The position numbers and the translations under genes are program-made. A DNA stretch of 64,000 nucleotides from an uncultured Aquimarina sp. (lineage in GTDB: Bacteria; Bacteroidota; Bacteroidia; Flavobacteriales; Flavobacteriaceae). The notes under the pieces were generated by a model, which was not told the origin of the DNA, searched no databases, and saw nothing but the letters and a program-made list of their open reading frames with translations. Shown here in pieces: positions 2,465 to 50,575 of the stretch. The number at the start of each line of letters is the position of its first letter. Positions within the stretch are counted from its first letter, which is position 1. The DNA lies in NCBI GenBank assembly GCA_947497175.1, contig CANMFM010000009.1, forward strand, positions 36,348-100,347. The letters are read 5' to 3'.

Positions 2465-4891
2465 TTATCTGAGTTCAGCTCCTAATTTGCTCTCGAAATT
2501 ATGTTGTAGCTTATTCATAATTTTATCTATTTGTTTATCGGTAAGTGTTTTGTTCTCATCTTGTAATGTGAAACTCACGGCATATGATTTTTTTCCTTTA
2601 GGTAAGTTTTTACCTTGATAAACATCAAATAAATTTATGTCTTTTAAAAGCTGTTTTTCGGTCTGCTTTGCTATAGTATGAATCTCCTCAAATTTAACAG
2701 AATCATCTAAAAGCAGGGCAAAGTCTCGGCGCACTTCTGGAAATTTAGGGATATCTTTGTACCAGATTTTATTGTGTTTGGCAAAGTCTACTATAGCATC
2801 CCAGTTAAAATCGGCATATAGTACCTCCTGTGAAATAGAAAAATGCTTTAGAATAGATTTTTTGATAATCCCAAAATCTACAAGTTTGGCTTTGCCCAAA
2901 CTAAGAGAAAGTCCTTCAGAAAATAGATCATTCTTAACAGGAGTGGTTTTGATTTTTGTTAGTCCAAGACGCTGCAAAATAGATAATACCACACCTTTAA
3001 GATAAAAGAAATCACCGTGTACTTGCTTGGTTTTCCAGTTTTCTTTTATATGATTACCAGAAATAATAATGCTTAGATGTTTGTTTTCGATTCGTCCATT
3101 ATCGTAATCATGGTAGGTTTTACCAAATTCGAATAACTTTAAATCAGAGCGTTTTCTATTGATGTTATATGATACTGCTTCTAGACCTGAAAATAACATA
3201 GATTGTCTTAAAACTGCAAGATCATTACTAAGAGGATTTAACATCTCGACGTTATTTTCCATTTTAAGTTGTTCACTTAAATTAATATAATCTTGAGTGG
3301 TAAGCGAATTAGCCAACATCTCATTATATCCCTGTCCAACCAATTGATTTGATATGGTATTCTGTATCTTATGGTCAGAGAATTTATCAATATTAGAAAT
3401 CGAGGCATTTAACTTCTGTGTAAAATCTATGTTGTTATAGCCATATACTCTAAGGATTTCTTCAATGACATCAACTTCTCTTTGCACATCATTTCGATAT
3501 GCTGGTATCGTAAGTCCGATACCTTTTTCAGTTATGCTGTTTATTTTTATATCTAACGATGTAAGTATAGATTTGATGGTTTCCTGTGGAAGCTCTTCTC
3601 CAATCAACTTAGCAGTATTTTCGAAGGATAAAAACACCTGAAAATCTTCAATCTTTTTTGGATACAAATCTATAATTTCACTAGAAATATGCCCTCCGGC
3701 TAATTCTTGTATTAAAAGGGCAGCTCTTTTTAAAGCGTATTCGGTAATATTTGGATCAATACCTCTTTCAAACCTAAAAGAGGCATCTGTATTTAATCCA
3801 TGACGTTTTGCAGTTTTACGTACACTTATTGGATTAAAATAAGCACTCTCTAAAAATATTGATGTAGTATTATCTGTAACACCAGAGTGAATACCTCCAA
3901 ACACACCTGCAATACAAAGTGGTTTTACAGCATCGCAAATCATTAGATCTTCTTCATGCAATTCTCTTTCTACCTCATCTAAAGTGGTAAACTTAGTTCT
4001 AGCCTCTACTGTTTTTACTTCAATAATGTTACCTTCGATGTAGTGAGCGTCAAAAGCATGCAACGGTTGCCCTAATTCGTGTAATACATAATTAGTAACA
4101 TCGACAACATTATTTTTTGGAGTTATTCCTATTGCCTTTAGTCTGTGTTGTAACCAAGAGGGGGATTCTCCAACTTTAATATCAGAAATAGTAACTCCAC
4201 AATATCTAGGAGCCAAAGTGGGATCATTAACCTCAATATTAATTTTGTGCAACCTGTTCTCCACTCTAAAATTGCTCACAGATGGAGTAATAAATTCCAG
4301 GTTGATATCCTTTTGTTGTAACCCTGCTTTAAGGTCACGGGCGGTGCCCCAATGACTCATAGCGTCTGCACGATTAGGGGTAAGTCCTATCTCGAATATT
4401 TGATCATTTTCTATATCAAATACTTCAGCAGCCCTTGTGCCTACGGTGATATTAGTATCAAGAACCATAATTCCATCATGATTTTTTCCTAGACCTAATT
4501 CGTCTTCGGCACAAATCATACCATGGCTTTCTTCTCCACGAATTTTCCCTTTTTTGATAACCCATTCTTTACCGTCATCATCATATAACTTTGTACCTAT
4601 TGTGGCTACGGGTACTTTTTGACCAGCAGCAACATTTGGAGCACCACAAACAATCTGTACAGGGGTTCCGGTACCTAAATCAACTTTCGTTATTTTCAAT
4701 TTATCTGCATTGGGATGTTTTTCACAAGTAAGAACTTGTCCTACAACAACACCTTCTAATCCACCTTTAACACTTTGGTAGGCTTCAATTCCTTCTACTT
4801 CTAAGCCTAAATCTGTAAGCAATTCACCTGTTTTCTCAGCATCCCAATCTGGGTTAATGAATTGTTTTAGCCAGTTATATGAAATCTTCAT
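2465..4891 (-). CDS. pheT: Phenylalanine--tRNA ligase beta subunit
   Basis: 808 aa. N-terminus MKISYNWLKQFI, tRNA-binding domain motif HPNADKL, and B3/4, B5 and C-terminal anticodon-binding-like regions typical of PheT. Confidence 0.95.
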   Translation of the reverse strand: MKISYNWLKQFINPDWDAEKTGELLTDLGLEVEGIEAYQSVKGGLEGVVVGQVLTCEKHPNADKLKITKVDLGTGTPVQIVCGAPNVAAGQKVPVATIGTKLYDDDGKEWVIKKGKIRGEESHGMICAEDELGLGKNHDGIMVLDTNITVGTRAAEVFDIENDQIFEIGLTPNRADAMSHWGTARDLKAGLQQKDINLEFITPSVSNFRVENRLHKINIEVNDPTLAPRYCGVTISDIKVGESPSWLQHRLKAIGITPKNNVVDVTNYVLHELGQPLHAFDAHYIEGNIIEVKTVEARTKFTTLDEVERELHEEDLMICDAVKPLCIAGVFGGIHSGVTDNTTSIFLESAYFNPISVRKTAKRHGLNTDASFRFERGIDPNITEYALKRAALLIQELAGGHISSEIIDLYPKKIEDFQVFLSFENTAKLIGEELPQETIKSILTSLDIKINSITEKGIGLTIPAYRNDVQREVDVIEEILRVYGYNNIDFTQKLNASISNIDKFSDHKIQNTISNQLVGQGYNEMLANSLTTQDYINLSEQLKMENNVEMLNPLSNDLAVLRQSMLFSGLEAVSYNINRKRSDLKLFEFGKTYHDYDNGRIENKHLSIIISGNHIKENWKTKQVHGDFFYLKGVVLSILQRLGLTKIKTTPVKNDLFSEGLSLSLGKAKLVDFGIIKKSILKHFSISQEVLYADFNWDAIVDFAKHNKIWYKDIPKFPEVRRDFALLLDDSVKFEEIHTIAKQTEKQLLKDINLFDVYQGKNLPKGKKSYAVSFTLQDENKTLTDKQIDKIMNKLQHNFESKLGAELR

Positions 4892-5086
4892 TGATGATTA
4901 TTCTAAATTCAGTCGGTAAAGATAATATATTGAATAGAGGTTACAAATAAGAACCATTTTATCTTTCGTAAATTCATTAAAAAAGATCCTAATAAAGCCT
5001 TCTTGGACATAAATACCAGGATTATCTTTTTATCCAATTTATTAATACTTAATTTTTCATATTTTTGAATTCAAAAAGTATCAGAT

Positions 5087-5440
5087 ATGAATAAGGCAAA
5101 AAGTAAGAATTGGCTCATTATTGTGTTTTTGTTTAGTTGTTGGTGTACCTTTTCGCAAGAGGAAAAAGTAAATGTAAAAAAAGATACACGTACTATTAAA
5201 ATAAAAACTGATCAACCTGACAAGGTTCGGGAGGATACAAAAAACAATAAGGAATTTTTTCGGAAAAGTGAATTCAATACTACCGCTGAACGCTATTCGA
5301 AAGAGGGCTTAACTCCTTACATTGGTAAGGATGGACAGGCAGTATTTCCATTGGGTGAAGCTGAAGATAATACAACGAAAAAAGAAAGAAAGAAGAAAAC
5401 TAGTACTAAAAACTCAAAAAAGCAGTCATCCAAGAATTAA
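5087..5440 (+). CDS. Small secreted K/E-rich protein, unknown function
   Basis: Signal-like N-terminus MNKAKSKNWLIIVFLFSCWCTFSQ and a low-complexity lysine-rich tail. No recognisable domain. Confidence 0.5.
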   Translation: MNKAKSKNWLIIVFLFSCWCTFSQEEKVNVKKDTRTIKIKTDQPDKVREDTKNNKEFFRKSEFNTTAERYSKEGLTPYIGKDGQAVFPLGEAEDNTTKKERKKKTSTKNSKKQSSKN

Positions 5441-5568
5441 GAAGGAGTCTGTTTTAAATTAAATCTGATTTATAAATAACATTAGTTCTATACTTTTTAA
5501 TAGAGAGAAGATATTGCCTGGTTTTTTGCGGACTTATCTTTTAATCCCATACAATAATATTTTATTCA

Positions 5569-6798
5569 ATGAAAATCAACACCCTATGTTTTTTAGTTCT
5601 TACGCTTTTAATAGCATCTTGTAAGAAAAATGAGAAACAATCTTTTTTTGATTTCAAAAGTGGTCCCTGGAGGGCAACATTGAAGGTGCAAGACAACAAA
5701 CAACTTCCTTTTTTATTTGAAGTTATGGATGATCAGAGTTTAAAAATCTTTAACGCCGAAGAAGTTATAGATGTAAATGAAATAGAAATAAATGGAGACT
5801 CTATAAAAATTAAATTTCCTGTTTTTGAAGGGTATGTTGCTGCAAAATTTATAGACTCGATGAATATCTCCGGTAGTTTTATTAAAGAAAGTCTTGGTAG
5901 GGTAGTCCCTTTTGAGGCAAAATATGGGCAACAGGATCGGTTTAAAATTACCTCAAAACCCTCAAAAGACATCACCGGTAACTGGGAGACTGTTTTTAGT
6001 GAAGGTAATGCAGAAGATCGTTACGTAGCCAAAGGGATATTTTCTCAAAACGGTAATATTGTTACAGGAACATTTAGAACAACAACAGGAGATTATCGAT
6101 ATCTCGAGGGGGTTCTCAACGACGATCAACTACAGTTGTCAACCTTTGACGGCGCCCATGCATTTTTGTTTACAGCTCAAGTAAACGACAGTACAATTAA
6201 TGGTAATTTTTATTCAGGTAATCATTGGAAAGAGCCATTTACGGCTAAGAAAAATGAAAAGTATAAGTTACCATCAGAAGATTCATTAACTTTTCTTAAA
6301 AAGGGGTATGATACCTTTGATTTTGATTTTCCTAATGTGAAAGGAGATCAGGTTTCTCTAAAAGATTCACGATTTAAGGATAAGGTTGTTATTGTTCAAA
6401 TCATGGGAACATGGTGCCCTAATTGCATGGATGAAACCAAGTATTATGTCGATTTTTATAATGAGAATAAAGAAAAAGGTATAGCGATCGTGGCCTTAGC
6501 TTTCGAGTATGCCAAAACCAAAGAAAAAGCCTTTAATTCTATAAAGAGATTACAAGAAAAATTAAATGTAGAATACCCTATTCTTCTTGCCCAATTCGGG
6601 ACCTCAGATAAACAAAAAGCACAAGAAAAATTACCAATGCTTAACCATGTTTTATCGTATCCAACCACTATCTTTATTGATAAAAAAGGAGAAGTTCGTA
6701 AAATACACACAGGTTTTAATGGTCCGGCTACAGGACAGAAATATATTGACTTCAAAAAGGATTTCGAGGAGTTTGTAAATCAATTGGTAACAGAATAA
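5569..6798 (+). CDS. Lipoprotein with C-terminal TlpA/ResA-like thioredoxin-fold domain (thiol-disulfide oxidoreductase)
   Basis: Lipobox LLIASC. WCPNC redox motif lies in an AhpC/TSA-like C-terminal half. Confidence 0.8.
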   Translation: MKINTLCFLVLTLLIASCKKNEKQSFFDFKSGPWRATLKVQDNKQLPFLFEVMDDQSLKIFNAEEVIDVNEIEINGDSIKIKFPVFEGYVAAKFIDSMNISGSFIKESLGRVVPFEAKYGQQDRFKITSKPSKDITGNWETVFSEGNAEDRYVAKGIFSQNGNIVTGTFRTTTGDYRYLEGVLNDDQLQLSTFDGAHAFLFTAQVNDSTINGNFYSGNHWKEPFTAKKNEKYKLPSEDSLTFLKKGYDTFDFDFPNVKGDQVSLKDSRFKDKVVIVQIMGTWCPNCMDETKYYVDFYNENKEKGIAIVALAFEYAKTKEKAFNSIKRLQEKLNVEYPILLAQFGTSDKQKAQEKLPMLNHVLSYPTTIFIDKKGEVRKIHTGFNGPATGQKYIDFKKDFEEFVNQLVTE

Positions 6799-16225: not shown

Positions 16226-17143
16226 TTATTCAATAGGAATACAAAAGTCAACAATACATTTCTTTTCTGGATGTTCATTGAAATTATTATGATAGATCTC
16301 AAAAGGATTTTTATTCGCTTTTTTATATCCATTTTCGTTCATCCATACAAATAATCCAGTCCAGGATTTTTCAAATTCATCCATTCTGATTTCATAACGA
16401 CTTATAATACATTTTCCTTGCTCTATTGCAGTCAAAGCTATTTCACCTTCTGTTTCAACGGGTTTATTTAGTATAATACAAGCACTAGTTCTTACTTTAT
16501 CCGCTTCTGTTATTTTGAAGCTGTCGTGATAAATTGTAACCATTTTAGCTTGTTTATCAACTAATCCTTTTGGTGTAGCCCATCGAATTAATTTTTGATA
16601 CGCAATTTCAATATTTTGTGCACCGATGCTTGAGACATAAGCCAAACTCATTTTTGGCATTTCTTTTATTTCAATTTTTGCATTCATTTTTGTCCAATTT
16701 TTAAGATTATTCATGATGCAAATATATTCTTCCCTGTTTGGATACTCTTTACCATTCTTGCTTTGAAGTTGACATATCTTGCTAAACTTATTTGGATGTT
16801 GTTTTCTAAATTCTATAGGGCTTACCCCGTAGTATTTTTTAAATGCTCTTGTAAACGATGAATTGTTATTGAACCCATAGGCAATAGAAATTTCGGATAT
16901 TTTAAGAGTGGTATGCAATAGATTAGAAGCCGACTTTTCAATTCTTTGTCTTGTTATATATTCATTTAAGGTTTCTGAGTGAATATATTTGAATATTCTA
17001 TGAAAATGAAATGGAGAAAAACAGGCAATCTCTGAAATTGTATTCAATGATAGAGAAGCATCCAGATTTGTATCAATATATTGATAAACGTTATTCATCC
17101 TAATTTTGTAATCAGCTAGAATTTTCTCTTCTACCATTGTCAT
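16226..17143 (-). CDS. AraC-family transcriptional regulator with C-terminal GyrI-like effector-binding domain
   Basis: N-terminal HTH_18-type region (FSPFHFHRIFK..., SSFTRAFKKYYGVSP) and a C-terminal GyrI-like half. Confidence 0.8.
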   Translation of the reverse strand: MTMVEEKILADYKIRMNNVYQYIDTNLDASLSLNTISEIACFSPFHFHRIFKYIHSETLNEYITRQRIEKSASNLLHTTLKISEISIAYGFNNNSSFTRAFKKYYGVSPIEFRKQHPNKFSKICQLQSKNGKEYPNREEYICIMNNLKNWTKMNAKIEIKEMPKMSLAYVSSIGAQNIEIAYQKLIRWATPKGLVDKQAKMVTIYHDSFKITEADKVRTSACIILNKPVETEGEIALTAIEQGKCIISRYEIRMDEFEKSWTGLFVWMNENGYKKANKNPFEIYHNNFNEHPEKKCIVDFCIPIE

Positions 17144-31600: not shown

Positions 31601-31860
31601 TTCTAATTATTATATTATCATCACATATTGAAATGTCGAATACATTACAAAGTGATAAAACCGATTTATAATCAATTGATTTATTTAAAATTTGATACGA
31701 TTATCTGTGCATTAAAAATTAGAAAGATTTCTATGCATTAGTTACTCATTTTTTTGAGTATGTCTTTTGAGAAAGACTCAGATAGTATGTTTAATTAGTA
31801 TAACAGACTTCAAAGATAGAAATTCTGAATTTATTTTCTGATTTTGTTGGTTTTAATTGT

Positions 31861-38145: not shown

Positions 38146-38316
38146 ACACAACGTTTAATATATATGTCATAACAGAGTAAAATGTTACCTAGCTATCGAT
38201 ATATTCTGCGCATTGATCGCTAACTTTTACTTTTTGCAAGCATTGCGCCTTTATAAAAATACAACAATCTTTCGATTCATCGCTTAGCTGCTATGAGCAC
38301 ATATATGGCGTTGTAT
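38146..38316 (-). repeat. attC-like imperfect palindrome (family A)
   Basis: ACACAAC-GTTTAATATATATGTCATAACAGAGTAAAATGTTACC ... CTTTCGATTCATCGCTTAGCTGCTATGAGCACATATATGGC-GTTGTAT. Confidence 0.7.
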
Positions 38317-38323
38317 AATATTT

Positions 38324-38839: not shown

Positions 38840-39010
38840 CACAACGTTCAATATATATGTGTTGTAATAGAGCAAAATGTTACAGAGCTATCGATATTTC
38901 TGCGCATTGATTGTTAACTTTTACTTCTTACGAGAATTGCGTCATTGCAAGAATACAAAACCATTCGATTCATCACTTAGCTGCTATGACATCATACTTG
39001 GTGTTGTGCT
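38840..39010 (-). repeat. attC-like imperfect palindrome (family A)
   Basis: ACACAAC-GTTCAATATATATGTGTTGTAATAGAGCAAAATGTTAC ... CGATTCATCACTTAGCTGCTATGACATCATACTTGGT-GTTGTGC. Confidence 0.7.
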
Positions 39011-39017
39011 TAGTTTT

Positions 39018-39464
39018 TTATATAACGATTCTTATTTTTTTTCGCTGTTCGATTAGTATTTTTTCATTATTCGCTCCGATGTCAATATATCGTCCATTTT
39101 TGGCTTTTAAAATCGTATCAAAATTTAGAGTTCGATTGATTTTTAAACCTAATGCTCTGTCAATTATTTCAGTCGTTTTGAAGGTTCCAGAAACTCGAAA
39201 CTCTTTTCCACTTACATAAATTGATGAGTTTTTAGAAATTCCCCATTCAGGCATCATTTCAATTCGGTGATTTTTAAATCTTATGCTGTTATTAACTTTT
39301 ACGTGCAAAGTATCATTTTCAAATACAGAATGGAAAGAAACATTAGATTGTCCTTTCGGAAGATTTCTATAAGAATTACAGGAAATGAGTCCGATAATGA
39401 GTATCAGAATTAATATAAGTTTATTAGTTAGTCTATTTTTTCTCAATTCTGTCAAATTAGGCAC
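39018..39464 (-). CDS. Lipoprotein, unknown function
   Basis: GTG start overlapping the R' box. Lipobox LISC. 148 aa. Confidence 0.55.
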   Translation of the reverse strand: MPNLTELRKNRLTNKLILILILIIGLISCNSYRNLPKGQSNVSFHSVFENDTLHVKVNNSIRFKNHRIEMMPEWGISKNSSIYVSGKEFRVSGTFKTTEIIDRALGLKINRTLNFDTILKAKNGRYIDIGANNEKILIEQRKKIRIVI

Positions 39465-40168: not shown

Positions 40169-40336
40169 CTATAACGTTTATATATGTGTCGTAGCAGGGC
40201 AAAATGTTACCTTGATTTTCTATATTTCTGTGCATTGGTTGCTAACTTTTACTTTTTGCAAGCATTACGCCTTTATAAATATACAACAACCAATCGATTG
40301 ATCACTTTGCTGCTATGATCACATATAAAGTTTTAG
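40169..40336 (-). repeat. attC-like imperfect palindrome (family A)
   Basis: CTATAAC-GTTTATATATGTGTCGTAGCAGGGCAAAATGTTACC ... CAATCGATTGATCACTTTGCTGCTATGATCACATATAAA-GTTTTAG. Confidence 0.65.
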
Positions 40337-40345
40337 CAAATGTCC

Positions 40346-43622: not shown

Positions 43623-45128
43623 TTATTCATAATTGCCTTCTGGGTCTGTTTTATAAACTAATAGTTCTGGTTTTTCTTCTCCATAATAATAGTTTTTACT
43701 CAAACTTCCTGCAACTCTATATCCTCCATCTTCTTCAGGCAATATTGAACGACCATATAGGTAGGTGAAACTTTCTTGATATTTCTTGTTCCATTCCTCT
43801 GTACCCGAACTAGAAAATTTGTAAATTCCTAATGCGCCATAATTACCTAAATCAACATGTCCTGTTGTAATGAATCCACCATCCATGGTTTCAGCTATAG
43901 AGAAAGTTGAAGATAATTCTGTAGAAACATTCCAAACTTCTGTACCTTCAGGGTCGATTTCAAAGATTCTACCCCCACTTATGTCATAAGCACCCCAGCT
44001 ATATCCTGCAAAAGCATAATTTCCATTACTCTTTGTTATTATTTTTCTCGGAAAATCATAACGACCATCTCCAAAAGTATTTTCCCATAAAGTTTCTCCA
44101 TCATTTGTTAGCTTTAAAACCCAGAAGTCAATTTGTTCATCTTGTGTAGAAGTTGCTCCATTCGTTTCAGTTGACCCTAATACTATAAGGTTATTCGCAT
44201 TTGTAATAATAATATCGTAGAAAAAATTTCGTCGTGAGGGTTCAAAAATTTTCTCCCATTGAATTATTCCAGAAGAATTAAGTTTTGTCAATACAGCTTG
44301 TTGTTTTATCAGAGAGTTATCAGAACCTCTACCTCCAACAATAAATATACTTCCTTCAGAATCTTGGGCAACAGATTTTATATCAGCAGAACCATCTAGA
44401 ATACCATAGCTATCAATTTTTTTATACCAGATAATATTTCCTTCACTATCCAAACTTAAAACATGATGATGACTAACCAAAATAAAACCAGTTAGTGAAT
44501 TAATAATAGTTGGATTCCAACCATCAGTTAGGTCATAATCATAAAATTTTTTCCATAATTCATTTCCATCATAATCAATTTTTGAAACGAAAAGGCGATA
44601 CCCATTTCCATTTGGAAATACAGATGCTCCAGCGATAATATAATTTTGGTCATTGGATTTTATCATGGTATTAGGACCTCCATAAGCATAACCATTCGGG
44701 CCATAACTATATTCACCATAATCATATTTTTTGAGGTATTTTAAATAGTATTTTTCAGTTTGAAAAGAAAAAGTAACCTCTGTTTGATTGTTTTCAGTAT
44801 CTTTTGCAATTATTTTTCCAGAATAGTCAGTTAATTCTTCAAGGTCAATAAATTCATATGTGAGTTCAGTAATGTTTTCAATAACTAATTCTTGGTTTAA
44901 ATAAATATCATAGATTACCGTATCATTTTCTGGGTCAGTAGCTTGATTCCAATTAAGTGTTGCGCCTTCAGATGAAACATTGATAATTTCAATATCAAAA
45001 TTATTCGGCGCAAGATTAATTATTTCTTCTTCTTCTTCTTCTTCTTCTATAATTTCATTTATAGAATCATCTTTCGAACATCCTATTATTAAAAAGATAA
45101 TTAATAATGTAGAATAAAATTTTTCCAT
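43623..45128 (-). CDS. Lipoprotein with E-rich linker, FN3 domain and beta-propeller-like C-terminal region
   Basis: The internal ATG at 45128 gives MEKFYSTLLIIFLIIGCS (lipobox). The 18-codon upstream extension in the ORF track reads through the attC-like site. FN3-like region APNNFDIEIINVSSEGATLNWNQATDPE. Confidence 0.7.
   Translation of the reverse strand: MEKFYSTLLIIFLIIGCSKDDSINEIIEEEEEEEEIINLAPNNFDIEIINVSSEGATLNWNQATDPENDTVIYDIYLNQELVIENITELTYEFIDLEELTDYSGKIIAKDTENNQTEVTFSFQTEKYYLKYLKKYDYGEYSYGPNGYAYGGPNTMIKSNDQNYIIAGASVFPNGNGYRLFVSKIDYDGNELWKKFYDYDLTDGWNPTIINSLTGFILVSHHHVLSLDSEGNIIWYKKIDSYGILDGSADIKSVAQDSEGSIFIVGGRGSDNSLIKQQAVLTKLNSSGIIQWEKIFEPSRRNFFYDIIITNANNLIVLGSTETNGATSTQDEQIDFWVLKLTNDGETLWENTFGDGRYDFPRKIITKSNGNYAFAGYSWGAYDISGGRIFEIDPEGTEVWNVSTELSSTFSIAETMDGGFITTGHVDLGNYGALGIYKFSSSGTEEWNKKYQESFTYLYGRSILPEEDGGYRVAGSLSKNYYYGEEKPELLVYKTDPEGNYE
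45025..45048. repeat. (TTC)8 / (GAA)8 microsatellite inside a CDS
   Basis: Eight perfect TTC units on the + strand encode the E8 run of the lipoprotein. Confidence 0.9.
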
Positions 45129-47974: not shown

Positions 47975-47983
47975 CTCAACATT

Positions 47984-48154
47984 GCCTAACGTTTAATATA
48001 TATGTCATAACAGGGCAAAATGTTACCTTGCTTTTTGATTTTTCTGCGCATTGGTTGCTAACTTTTCCATTCTGCAAGCATTGCGCCTTACCAAATATAC
48101 AAGAACCAATCAATTGATCACTTAGCTGCTATGATCGCATATATAATGTTAGGC
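47984..48154 (-). repeat. attC-like imperfect palindrome (family A)
   Basis: GCCTAAC-GTTTAATATATATGTCATAACAGGGCAAAATGTTACC ... CAATCAATTGATCACTTAGCTGCTATGATCGCATATATAAT-GTTAGGC. These match the canonical RYYYAAC / GTTRRRY boxes. Confidence 0.75.
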
Positions 48155-48163
48155 AATGTTTTA

Positions 48164-48604
48164 TTATTCAGTTTTTTTATCCATTTTTTTTCCTACGGAA
48201 TCTATTTTATCGTTTAATGAATTCAGTTGAATTTCAAGTAAATTATTCCGCTCTCGTATAATCTCGTTTTGGGTACTTAATTTTTTGTTTATCTGTTGTA
48301 GTTGGTTAATTTGGTCATTTTGCCATTTTTGATCTCCTCTGTAATCAATACTAGCGAAAACAACACCAATTATTGATAAGATAATTGCGATTACTGATAG
48401 AACTATAACAAAATTTGTAAGCTTGGTAGATTTTTTTGCAAATTCATTATTTGATCTTCTTACTAATTCATTATGAGATAAGTTTGCGATATCTCTTTTA
48501 ACGTTTGGAGATTTAGTGGTGTCTAAAAAATCATTAGAATTGTTAGTGTATAACTTCTTAAGTTCCTCCTCGGACATTTCAAATATTTCAAGTTTTTCAG
48601 TCAT
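48164..48604 (-). CDS. Hypothetical single-TM coiled-coil protein
   Basis: 146 aa, with a central TM (FVIVLSVIAIILSIIGVVFA) and a Q/N-rich coiled-coil C-terminus. Confidence 0.5.
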   Translation of the reverse strand: MTEKLEIFEMSEEELKKLYTNNSNDFLDTTKSPNVKRDIANLSHNELVRRSNNEFAKKSTKLTNFVIVLSVIAIILSIIGVVFASIDYRGDQKWQNDQINQLQQINKKLSTQNEIIRERNNLLEIQLNSLNDKIDSVGKKMDKKTE

Positions 48605-48624: not shown

Positions 48625-49056
48625 TTACTTTAACTTAAATTTACTCCCTTCCTTATATCCAACTGGTAATTTGGGACTTTTAATTCCGAAAGGTCCAGAT
48701 CCATTATGATTGTAATAAAATTCTTCTTTGTTGTCCGAATATCTTCCTGCACAAAGAAGATTAAATGTTGTACTTTTTCTACTAGATTTTAACACATTTA
48801 TATCAATCCATACTGGAACTTTACCTTTTCTATATAACAAATCTACCACTTCATTATCCGATAAGTCAAGTTGCATTTTACCAGTATCTTCAGGATAAAT
48901 ATCAAATTGTGGTAGATTTGGATCGTCCGTTGAGGCGTTTAGAATAACATTATATTTGAAGTCAGTAGTTAGTTTATTTTTGACATAGTTTTCAGCAAAC
49001 TTAAGAGCTACTAAACTCGCTCCTTGTAGATGAAATAAGAATTCTTCTTTTGTCAT
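48625..49056 (-). CDS. Hypothetical protein (first gene of the array)
   Basis: 143 aa. It ends 20 nt before the next ORF with no palindrome between them, so the two form a two-gene unit. Confidence 0.5.
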   Translation of the reverse strand: MTKEEFLFHLQGASLVALKFAENYVKNKLTTDFKYNVILNASTDDPNLPQFDIYPEDTGKMQLDLSDNEVVDLLYRKGKVPVWIDINVLKSSRKSTTFNLLCAGRYSDNKEEFYYNHNGSGPFGIKSPKLPVGYKEGSKFKLK

Positions 49057-49067
49057 TTTTTAATATT

Positions 49068-49074
49068 GCCTAAC
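49068..49074 (-). other. Terminal R'-like box (GTTAGGC on minus strand) at the promoter-proximal end of the array
   Basis: The + strand ATATTGCCTAAC lies 12 nt from the 49056 start. It is the reverse complement of GTTAGGCAATGT at 48148, the other end of the same unit (11/12 matches). No palindromic partner was recognised to its right. Confidence 0.5.
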
Positions 49075-49295
49075 AATCTTACAAAGGATATATATCCTTT
49101 ATATTTCATGTATGTTTATTTACAAATCTAATGGATTTTTGATCGACTCGAAAGAATTTAAGGCAACTTGGGGTACGGTCTTAGTCAATTTGTTTTATTT
49201 TAAAGTATTCTTTTACATGCTATCGGCTTTGCCTTAAGGCATCTTTAAGTGTATATGCCCTAAACGGTAAGGCGTTCTCAATATAAAAATAGCCC

Positions 49296-49672
49296 CTGCA
49301 GCTTGCAGGAAGGTTTCGCCAACCGGCGATTTGCTCCTGAAGTTTGCAGGAGCGTTTCGCCAACCCGCGATTTGCTCCTGAAGTTTGCAGGAGTGTTTCG
49401 CCAACCCGCGATTTGCCCCTGAAGTTTGCAGGAAGGTTTCGCCAACCCGCGATTTGCTCCTGAAGTTTGCAGGAGTGTTTCGCCAACCCGCGATTTGCTC
49501 CTGAAGTTTGCAGGAGTGTTTCGCCAATCCGCGATTTGCTCCTGAAGTTTGCAGGAGTGTTTCGCCAACCCGCGATTTGCTCCTGAAGTTTGCAGGAGTG
49601 TTTCGCCAACCCGCGATTTGCTCCTGAAGTTTGCAGGAAAATTTCGGCAACCCACGATTTGCTCCTGCAAAC
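49296..49672. repeat. 41-bp tandem repeat, 9 copies plus a partial tenth, GC-rich, with a hairpin in each unit
   Basis: Unit CTGAAGTTTGCAGGAGTGTTTCGCCAACCCGCGATTTGCTC starts at 49296, 49337, 49378, 49419, 49460, 49501, 49542, 49583 and 49624. The inner copies differ from the consensus by 0-3 nt and the two end copies by about 5. CTCCTG...CAGGAG forms a 6-7-bp stem across each unit junction. Confidence 0.9.
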
Positions 49673-49804
49673 TATAGGGGCCTTTTTTGAGTACTAAAAA
49701 GAATAGGGTATTTTTGCGTATAGTTTTCGTAAGATTTTTATATATACCATTTTGATTTCCAAATCATTTTTGTAGTTTGTAGATACTCTTTAAACCTATA
49801 TTTT

Positions 49805-50575
49805 ATGAAAACTATTAAAACTGCTTTCACCAACAAATACCGAAACGGTGAATTAATTCAATTCGTAGATGATATCACAGTACTTACTCAAAAAAGAGGG
49901 CCAGTACATGAAAAACTACACATTCGATATATCGAATTGAGAACTGCAAACACTAAAGCTTCAGAAGCCTTTGAGCCTAGTAGAAAACTTGTTAATACAA
50001 AAGAGCTTATTGCTATCGATAAACGCAGAGATGAGCTTACCATAGGATTGCGTACGCTGCTTGTGGGGCTTACCAAACATCCTTCTTTGCAATATCAAGA
50101 AGCTGCAGAACGTCTACTAGAGCGATTGGATAGTTATGGTAAAGCTATTTATCGGTACAACTACCAGTTACAAACACAAACGACCAAAGACCTTATCAAT
50201 GCGCTGACTACAGACAAAAAATTTGATGCCGATGTAAACACACTCCTTGTGGTTCGGGATTATATTAAAGCACTGCAACATGCAAATAGTAATTTTGCCG
50301 AAATATTTGTAAAGCGTACCCAAGAAAAAGGAGAGCAAATAGAAGCAGAAATGGCAGACTTGATCACTACCCTCGAAGAATCCTATAGAGCTTTTATAAT
50401 CAGACTTAATGCTATTGTAGAGATGGATGAGAGTTATCATGCAGATAACCTGATCAATGATATCAATGCGACTATTGATCAATATAACCAGGTCGTATTG
50501 GACCGAAGAGGAAAAGGTGAGTCCTCTTCAGAAACCAACAATCCACAAGATACTACAGAAGATTTTATAGCATAG
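49805..50575 (+). CDS. Helical protein of unknown function, divergent from the cassette array
   Basis: 256 aa, predicted all-helical, with an acidic C-terminus. No tyrosine-recombinase R..HxxR..Y pattern was seen. Confidence 0.6.
   Translation: MKTIKTAFTNKYRNGELIQFVDDITVLTQKRGPVHEKLHIRYIELRTANTKASEAFEPSRKLVNTKELIAIDKRRDELTIGLRTLLVGLTKHPSLQYQEAAERLLERLDSYGKAIYRYNYQLQTQTTKDLINALTTDKKFDADVNTLLVVRDYIKALQHANSNFAEIFVKRTQEKGEQIEAEMADLITTLEESYRAFIIRLNAIVEMDESYHADNLINDINATIDQYNQVVLDRRGKGESSSETNNPQDTTEDFIA

Follow-up and report, generated by a model that had tools for sequence, protein, structure and literature searches.

Why does a GC-rich repeat of nine near-identical units stand between an array of gene cassettes and a gene of a large protein family without literature? 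The question is raised by a stretch of 64,000 nucleotides from an uncultured Aquimarina sp. of the Flavobacteriaceae (GenBank assembly GCA_947497175.1, contig CANMFM010000009.1, positions 36,348–100,347), here called the window, in which the repeat array (49292–49681) lies within a 749-bp gap between two divergent genes. A first-pass annotation had looked to the cassette side and placed the array where attI and the integrase promoter region lie in integrons. We find that the array goes with the gene on its other side, at 49805–50575 on the plus strand, which encodes a 256-amino-acid (aa) protein of the DUF6261 family (Pfam PF19775, E = 5.5e-27). The array and DUF6261 are an undescribed two-part module that extends across the family throughout the Bacteroidota, and the window holds one instance of it beside a decayed integron platform. 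The array is more interesting than a local oddity, for a reason other than the one first given; its linkage to DUF6261 is well supported, and the mechanism behind it we infer. Literature searches on DUF6261, on the repeat motif and on the integrons of Aquimarina found nothing relevant.

Linkage of the repeat array to DUF6261 genes

In the window the array is made of nine full 41-bp units, printed in register from 49292 to 49660 on the plus strand and set head to tail without spacers, and with a short terminal element it ends 124 nt before the DUF6261 start codon at 49805. Arrays of 41-bp period lie directly upstream of DUF6261, and co-oriented with it, at eight Aquimarina loci, namely the window and two further contigs, a sister genome (GCA_947494615.1; 6.1 copies), A. 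mytili (about 5.5), A. sediminis (5.3), A. algicola (about 6, degenerate) and an uncultured Aquimarina (5.1). The sister strain, whose RecG and DUF6261 proteins are 99–100% identical to those of the window, keeps the array beside the homologous locus in 6 copies against 9; its genome is metagenome-assembled, and the difference may partly reflect assembly collapse. Unit sequences are about half identical between Aquimarina species and homogenised inside each array, a pattern of concerted evolution within arrays and rapid divergence between species. The array of the window is the longest and most homogeneous among those seen here.

The linkage is not confined to Aquimarina. Four distant members of the family from ENA assemblies, 27–29% identical to the window protein, include three with a lag of 41 upstream, and two of the distant-member arrays have a GC content of only 13–14%. 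A scan of JGI metagenomes yielded 30 more DUF6261 loci, in 29 of which the strongest autocorrelation lag (lags 12–99 considered) was 41, 42, 83, 84 or 85, at 180–260 nt before the ATG. When 600 nt upstream of 40 DUF6261 genes were compared with control windows taken from the same loci, the dominant period was 41/42 or its double (82–85) in 38 of the 40 and in 39 of the 342 controls; the 40 loci are not phylogenetically independent and represent roughly 20 independent lineages. The DUF6261 proteins of more than 30 metagenomic loci are only 27–40% identical, and the orientation of the array is always that of the DUF6261 gene. We use as a working definition an array directly upstream, about 40–520 nt from the ATG, in the orientation of the gene, with period 41/42 and a B box followed by an A box (see below). 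The window array has the position (124 nt to the ATG), orientation and period (41) of such an array. Position, orientation and period are constant, the two-box unit is shared, and we regard it as very likely that array and gene form one module.

The genomic contexts are diverse. Beside the integron context of Aquimarina, eight loci have the order cas9, array, DUF6261, IS200-like gene, cas1 and cas2, the Cas9 being recognized by its RuvC_III and HNH domains, and at ten loci the array directly follows a co-oriented gene for an XRE-type helix-turn-helix (HTH) protein. Other arrays lie between TrkH and nuo genes, after trigger factor, beside an HD-PycTM gene and after an SSF transporter gene. Because of this diversity, array and DUF6261 behave as one portable module. 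The cas9-linked loci (L017, L018, L020–L023, L041 and L045) belong to one metagenomic lineage with a type II-C operon and an IS200-like Y1 transposase gene; in L021, cas9 occupies 3–2240, DUF6261 2501–3229, a further gene 3429–4034, cas1 4237–5151 and cas2 5371–5703, and in L020 repeats resembling CRISPR-DR49 lie at 4183–4305, apart from the array. The XRE genes (L028, L031–L035, L039, L040, L042 and L044; for example L044 228–614) encode a C-terminal coiled coil and end about 10–20 nt before the array, and their product may regulate the module in a lineage-specific way. In L028, an HD-domain and PycTM (Pycsar effector) gene at 3323–4489 on the minus strand stands immediately 3' of DUF6261, a neighbour that suggests a defence-island context.

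Some modules may be decaying. In A. algicola (L004 5618–6606) the array is degenerate and DUF6261 is called at only 201 aa, and in the uncultured Aquimarina 637-3Z (L008 2691–3760) DUF6261 is split into open reading frames (ORFs) of 60 and 161 aa. Between DUF6261 and recG, A. algicola also has many heptamer microsatellites (AGTTATG, TGAGTTA, and TACTCAC x 8.7) as well as a coding repeat of 147 bp x 5.9 (L004 6836–9345 and 11162–12035). In L013, upstream of the AT-rich DUF6261 array, a separate GC-rich repeat of about 124 bp (2042–2560) contains the hairpins GCGAGCGTCCCGCTCGTGC and GGTACGAGCGTGACGCTCGCAC and has a run of N in its midst; L012 has a single related copy of it.

The repeat unit consists of two boxes. 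Across lineages the B box is (C)TGCA(C)-N2-4-(G)TGCA(R), a palindrome in many cases though not in all, and the A box is GTTTCGGGAA-NNN-CCCGAAAG, with 7-bp arms and a centre of usually 4 nt (a GTTTCGG..CCGAAA dyad). Arrays usually open with an orphan CCCGAAA right arm just after the stop codon of the upstream gene; at their other end, 40–105 nt from the ATG, a B box is joined by a left arm or by a full dyad. In the window, where units start at 49292, 49333, 49374, 49415, 49456, 49497, 49538, 49579 and 49620 on the plus strand, each unit is a B box GCTCCTGAAGTTTGCAGGAG (6-bp dyad, 7-nt centre), TG and an A box TTTCGCCAACCCGCGATTT; the B dyad is strong and the A dyad has shrunk to TCGC/GCGA (4 bp). 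By-eye alignment puts window unit 1, GCCCCTGCAGCTTGCAGGAAGGTTTCGCC, close to the unit CTTCCTGCAGCCTGCAGGAGATTTTCGGG of L029, an unrelated metagenomic lineage. Models built from metagenomic units only have their top window matches within the array and on the plus strand, at weak scores (nhmmer E = 0.014–3.4; covariance model 13–15 bits, E = 0.15–0.36).

Much of what the first-pass annotation said of the array itself holds. Tandem Repeats Finder reports 49295–49667 with period 41, 9.1 copies, 94% matches, no indels and a score of 641; the GC content is 54% against 25–30% in the 4 kb to the left; and the proposed CTCCTG/CAGGAG stems are found in units 2–9. The two halves of the unit gave nine matches each, all in the array and none elsewhere in the 64 kb, where chance would give 0.00–0.01. 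GCCAAC, claimed for every unit, occurs in seven of the nine, unit 6 having GCCAAT and unit 9 GGCAAC. The three predicted phantom ORFs on the minus strand are all present (49220–49609, 49234–49650 and 49278–49670; 129–138 aa, with TTG starts). They arise from the stop-free repeat and are no genes, and such a frame is not conserved in related arrays, whose unit sequences differ. A coding repeat was rejected because 41 is not a multiple of 3, the unit is not conserved at the protein level and the starts are TTG. Minor tandem repeats elsewhere in the window are (TTC) x 8.3 at 45024–45048, inside a 519-aa ORF, and repeats of about two copies of 23, 26 and 13 bp at 16650–16702, 31685–31740 and 48158–48191.

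The family is large: clustering at 50% identity gives at least 1,153 clusters (E < 1e-3), and the members are proteins of 240–260 aa and of acidic character (median isoelectric point, pI, 5.3). The AlphaFold2 model of the window protein is all-helical, with nine helices and a predicted local distance difference test score (pLDDT) of 91.7. No other Pfam family matches even at E <= 10, NCBIfam and PADLOC are also empty, and a PDB sequence profile search and Foldseek against PDB and BFVD gave nothing at E < 0.01, only coiled-coil-like noise. In the window DUF6261 is followed by recG and an M1 peptidase gene. Identity to A. mytili is 95.9% for RecG, 87% for the M1 peptidase and 72.7% for DUF6261, and the array is largely rewritten; the low value of DUF6261 relative to its neighbours is a sign that the module evolves fast or was replaced horizontally. 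An exact search with the unit 24-mer GATTTGCYCCTGAAGTTTGCAGGA found no match in 185,579 GTDB species genomes and the JGI metagenomes; the element evolves too fast for an exact DNA search, and the protein served as the anchor that worked. A scan of viral contigs gave one chance match, without a DUF6261 gene.

The array as a candidate partner of DUF6261

Our best reading makes the array the cognate nucleic acid with which either DUF6261 as a protein or its expression is paired. The suggestion in the first-pass annotation of a protein-binding platform or a structured RNA is still the right class of idea. Of the possible mechanisms we lean to a multi-hairpin RNA of the sense strand, in an architecture like that of type III toxin-antitoxin (TA) systems, to which we give somewhat less than an even chance. 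The array would then be transcribed on the DUF6261 strand as a string of hairpin units, each of about 37 nt and consisting of an A arm, the B box and an A arm, with short AA-led linkers between units. DUF6261 would bind the repeat units, or the units would control DUF6261, and in the window the amount of repeat RNA made per DUF6261 mRNA would be set by the terminal hairpin and its U-run.

Several observations point this way. Mismatches in the A dyad are biased, with G.T exceeding A.C by 54:15 when anchored on the left arm and by 41:17 when anchored on the right, an asymmetry that favours a sense-strand RNA; G.T prevails in ten lineages and A.C in one, and the innermost pair of the dyad is GU in 13 cases and AC in 5. 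The orphan CCCGAAA right arm at the start of arrays is expected if the unit is arm-B-arm. In the cas9 and XRE contexts the array begins about 10–20 nt after the stop codon of a co-oriented gene, which makes read-through possible. The fixed orientation of the arrays and, in the window, the hairpin with T6 between array and gene point the same way. Folding of the window array is far more stable than that of shuffled sequences on both strands (z = -8.9 and -8.0); any array of dyads gives such values, so they do not identify the strand.

Other findings weigh against an RNA partner. The G.T excess stems from related, non-independent units, and the A dyad is conserved and not covarying (91.6% paired, with no excess over shuffled alignments); a test of cognate against non-cognate arms was weakly positive overall, and not so for the lineage of the window. 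The folding energy of whole arrays favours neither strand (15 of 25 lineages). Among 26 loci, only the window and one other lineage have something terminator-like that separates array from gene, and by the same criteria the sister strain and about 21 of the 26 related loci have none. Arrays of 13–14% GC would fold weakly as RNA, and in units of the A. sediminis type the B box is not a hairpin and keeps only its right half. As for the protein, it is acidic, and the PDB, BFVD and Pfam searches found no recognizable RNA-binding or nuclease fold in it.

Carried further, the proposal of an RNA partner would make DUF6261 and its array a Bacteroidota-wide module of type III TA or abortive-infection kind, in which processed hairpins restrain an unrelated, all-helical effector in addiction or defence, the protein fold and the RNA unit both being new. 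We consider this extension doubtful. An addiction or defence role would explain the presence of the module in integron platforms and in cas9–cas1 operons.

The main rival, which we rank as rather unlikely though a serious contender, is that the array works as DNA: an operator or enhancer array of duplex sites on one helix face, just upstream of the DUF6261 core promoter, bound by DUF6261 itself in autoregulation or by a co-evolving regulator, and tuning expression by cooperative binding or DNA wrapping. The period, in 38 of the 40 loci, is strictly 41–42 bp across diverse sequences and GC contents, which is 3.9–4.0 turns at 10.5 bp per turn. The A box palindrome TTTCGGG-N4-CCCGAAA is conserved in sequence without covariation, and some B boxes are no dyads or are poor hairpin formers, such as the near-perfect palindrome TCAAGTCATTGACATGA of A. 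mytili with its 1-nt centre. Arrays of 13–14% GC keep their dyads and phased A/T tracts while folding poorly as RNA. In one clade the XRE-type HTH gene abuts the array, and in Aquimarina a conserved, promoter-like block lies between array and ATG. That block, CATTTTTGTAGTTTGTAGATACTCTTTAAACC at 49765–49796 on the plus strand, was recognized by in-register comparison of the eight Aquimarina loci. Similar to the -7 box of Bacteroidota (TAnnTTTG), it ends about 9 nt before the ATG and is a candidate core promoter or short leader of DUF6261. Against operator sites, however, the protein is acidic and lacks HTH, ribbon-helix-helix and any further known DNA-binding fold, nor is any regulator gene a consistent neighbour. 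The G.T over A.C asymmetry of the sense strand is unexpected for duplex sites, arrays begin with half a dyad, and a fixed orientation is unnecessary for symmetric operators.

Less probable still is a structural element without a specific partner, that is, a slippage-prone bidirectional terminator or insulator, or a set of stem-loops that stabilize mRNA. The ends of the window array speak for this explanation. The terminal element at 49661–49681 on the plus strand is a 21-nt modified B box, GCTCCTGCAAACTATAGGGGC, followed by CTTTTTT (to 49688), and on the sense strand it resembles an intrinsic terminator; on the minus strand, at 49283–49311, a hairpin formed by the first B box, GCCCCTGCAGCTTGCAGGAA, precedes CTATTTTTAT, and this site is likewise terminator-like and faces the cassette array. 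Thus both ends have an outward-facing, terminator-like hairpin with a T-run (plus strand 49661–49681, minus strand 49311–49293). The inverted arms that were said to bracket the array are real, though imperfect: 49292–49310 pairs with 49335–49353 and 49620–49638 with 49663–49681, the terminal element doubles as the right arm, and the reported GGGGCCTTTTTT lies at 49677–49688. The stable fold of both strands, the difference in copy number between sister strains and the frequent position between co-oriented genes agree with such an element. A generic insulator, however, would not hold a period of 41–42 nt, two boxes, an orientation and an exclusive linkage to one gene family down to 27% protein identity, and most related arrays lack the terminator-like ends.

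A few other identities were considered and dropped. Rfam gave no match at the gathering threshold for the window, and in E-value mode chance-level matches only for the window and seven related loci. Sigma-54 boxes (-24/-12) and NtrC-type TGCACC..GGTGCA sites in the B box were discarded by eye for their wrong spacing, as was a CsrA-type GGA sponge, since GGA lies outside the loops; to our knowledge Bacteroidota lack CsrA. A trans-activating CRISPR RNA (tracrRNA) was dropped for the cas9-linked loci, as the tracrRNA of Bacteroidota type II-C systems is reported upstream of cas9. The passages searched in a survey of structured RNAs in CRISPR operons do not mention such an array.

The integron-type cassette array to the left

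To the left of the repeat, a run of minus-strand genes of about 30 kb (window 19700–49075) has typical cassette content, including GNAT, methyltransferase, AraC/Cass2, lumazine-binding and NIF phosphatase genes, with repeats of about 170 nt between them. The attC-like sites at 38155–38321, 38853–39045, 40177–40343 and 47975–48165 are unusually long (about 170 nt) and bounded by GCCTAAC...GTTAGGC; the fold of the last of them, on the cassette strand, pairs R'' GCCTAAC with R' GTTAGGC, as in the layout of attC. An attI-like cassette junction at 49068–49103 on the minus strand is composed of GCCTAAC (GTTAGGC on the cassette strand) and a palindrome TACAAAGGATAT/ATATCCTTTATA at 49080–49103. Its GCCTAAC box, at 49068–49074, stands 218 bp before the array, in agreement with the roughly 220 bp first estimated. 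Homology between window and sister strain resumes exactly after GCCTAAC in the window and ACACAAC in the sister (49068–49074), starting at the R-box AAC. The first cassette differs: in the window it is a 143-aa ORF at 48625–49056 on the minus strand, given here as context outside the module, and in the sister strain a 154-aa gene.

Between this junction and the array, tblastn with the A. mytili integrase located an intI remnant at 49123–49194 (minus strand), which consists of the final 24 codons of a tyrosine recombinase gene of integron type. The complete recombinase of A. mytili has 358 aa (L002 4018–5094, minus strand), the orientation of the cassettes and an N-terminal extension of about 90 aa, and scores 241 bits against NF040815 'tyrosine recombinase/integron integrase' (cut-off 220). 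It is accompanied by a divergent 123-aa zinc-ribbon ORF with CxxC...CxxC (L002 5238–5609, plus strand). Window and sister strain both keep only the remnant of the recombinase gene; in the window the rest of intI and the 123-aa ORF are deleted, and no other integrase is present among the annotated ORFs between 15.6 and 59 kb of the window. By these features the left flank is the attI end of a genuine integron-type array whose integrase was deleted, and the cassette array is a CALIN (cluster of attC sites lacking integrase) that arose through deletion of intI.

The first-pass annotation was right, then, to see the attI-proximal end of a real cassette array here; a link of the repeat itself to attI, to the integrase promoter or to the R box finds no support. 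That the repeat is a multi-site platform for recombinase binding, or the attI/Pint/Pc region, is largely refuted, and we now regard it as very improbable. In its favour stand the distances of the array from a true cassette junction (218 bp) and from the intI remnant (100 bp), the four Aquimarina loci that have the array beside intI or a remnant of it, and the likeness of GCCAAC to the R-box core. In A. mytili, however, the attI-like site is downstream of intI, and the intact integrase and the 123-aa ORF stand between that site and the array, about 1.7 kb apart; at the A. sediminis locus recG and the integrase are both absent nearby. Hence the array follows DUF6261 and not attI. It persists where intI was deleted, the crossover does not fall within it but at the junction 218 bp away (49068–49074), and it does not always adjoin cassette arrays, since at more than 30 loci homologous arrays occur without an integron (beside cas9/cas1, XRE, TrkH/nuo, trigger factor and SSF transporter genes). 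The likeness of GCCAAC to the R box is coincidental, because GCCAAC is a lineage-specific stretch within the family-wide GTTTCGG..CCGAAA dyad and occurs in the units of no other lineage. Finally, a selfish dispersed repeat of the repetitive extragenic palindrome (REP), BOX or miniature inverted-repeat transposable element (MITE) type, in which inverted arms at the ends enclose an internal module that can expand, is suggested by the imperfect arms and the varying unit number and is hardly credible given a single locus in the 64-kb window and one per related locus, in keeping with the first-pass annotation, no exact 24-mer match in the 185,579 species genomes or JGI metagenomes, and a fixed position and orientation relative to one gene family.

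Known systems and the meaning of the module

Among known systems, type III TA loci (toxIN, cptIN and tenpIN) come closest in layout. Their tandem direct repeats of 31–62 nt in 1.9–5.6 copies (Blower et al. 2012, PMC3401426) lie directly upstream of a single co-oriented gene, as do the 41–42-nt repeats in 3–9 copies described here, and the repeat length, copy number and layout of the DUF6261 loci fall within the criteria published in that survey, which reported none of the type III TA families in Bacteroidota. In the window a palindrome and T-run likewise separate array from gene; the module is again small and self-contained and turns up in varied surroundings, defence loci among them, and repeat and protein diverge rapidly and in parallel. 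In contrast, DUF6261 is acidic and all-helical with no similarity to ToxN, CptN, TenpN or nucleases, most related DUF6261 loci are without a terminator, and the units are mainly simple dyads rather than demonstrated pseudoknots.

Iteron and operator arrays (plasmid Rep iterons; parC/ParR and ParG operators) share with the DUF6261 arrays even, same-orientation repeats just upstream of the gene for the putative binder, a spacing of integral helical turns and a variable copy number. They differ in their unit of 11–22 bp, compared with 41–42 bp and two different dyads here, and DUF6261 has no known DNA-binding fold and is chromosomal, unlinked to replication or partition genes. CRISPR arrays also have dyad-containing repeats of 36–47 nt, and at eight metagenomic loci the DUF6261 array stands between cas9 and cas1; unlike them, it has no spacers, the Rfam CRISPR-DR models do not match it, and the genuine CRISPR repeats of L020 are elsewhere. 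The attI and attC sites resemble it in that it borders a real cassette array, forms hairpins and carries GCCAAC, reminiscent of the R box (RYYYAAC), whereas it lies off the crossover point, occurs independently of integrons, runs head to tail without cassettes, and tracks DUF6261 in orientation and conservation. The pneumococcal BOX element contains boxB, of 45 bp, in 0–8 copies. BOX, REP and MITE elements are modular too, with pairing end modules and a tandem internal module; BOX and REP are dispersed in tens to hundreds of copies, whereas the DUF6261 array is single-copy and linked to a gene.

For annotation, the repeat is a source of phantom ORFs, and short-read assemblies break or collapse at it upstream of DUF6261 genes. 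For the family, an array before nearly every DUF6261 gene examined is the first concrete handle on a large group of proteins without literature, and it points to a testable nucleic-acid partner, with a unit of defined length, boxes and orientation. If the array acts as DNA, it would represent an unusually long, phase-locked operator design. If it acts as RNA, systems of repeat RNA and protein, so far comprising three endoribonuclease families, would be extended to a new phylum and a new fold, and the module would be a candidate stabilizing element for integrons and type II-C CRISPR loci.

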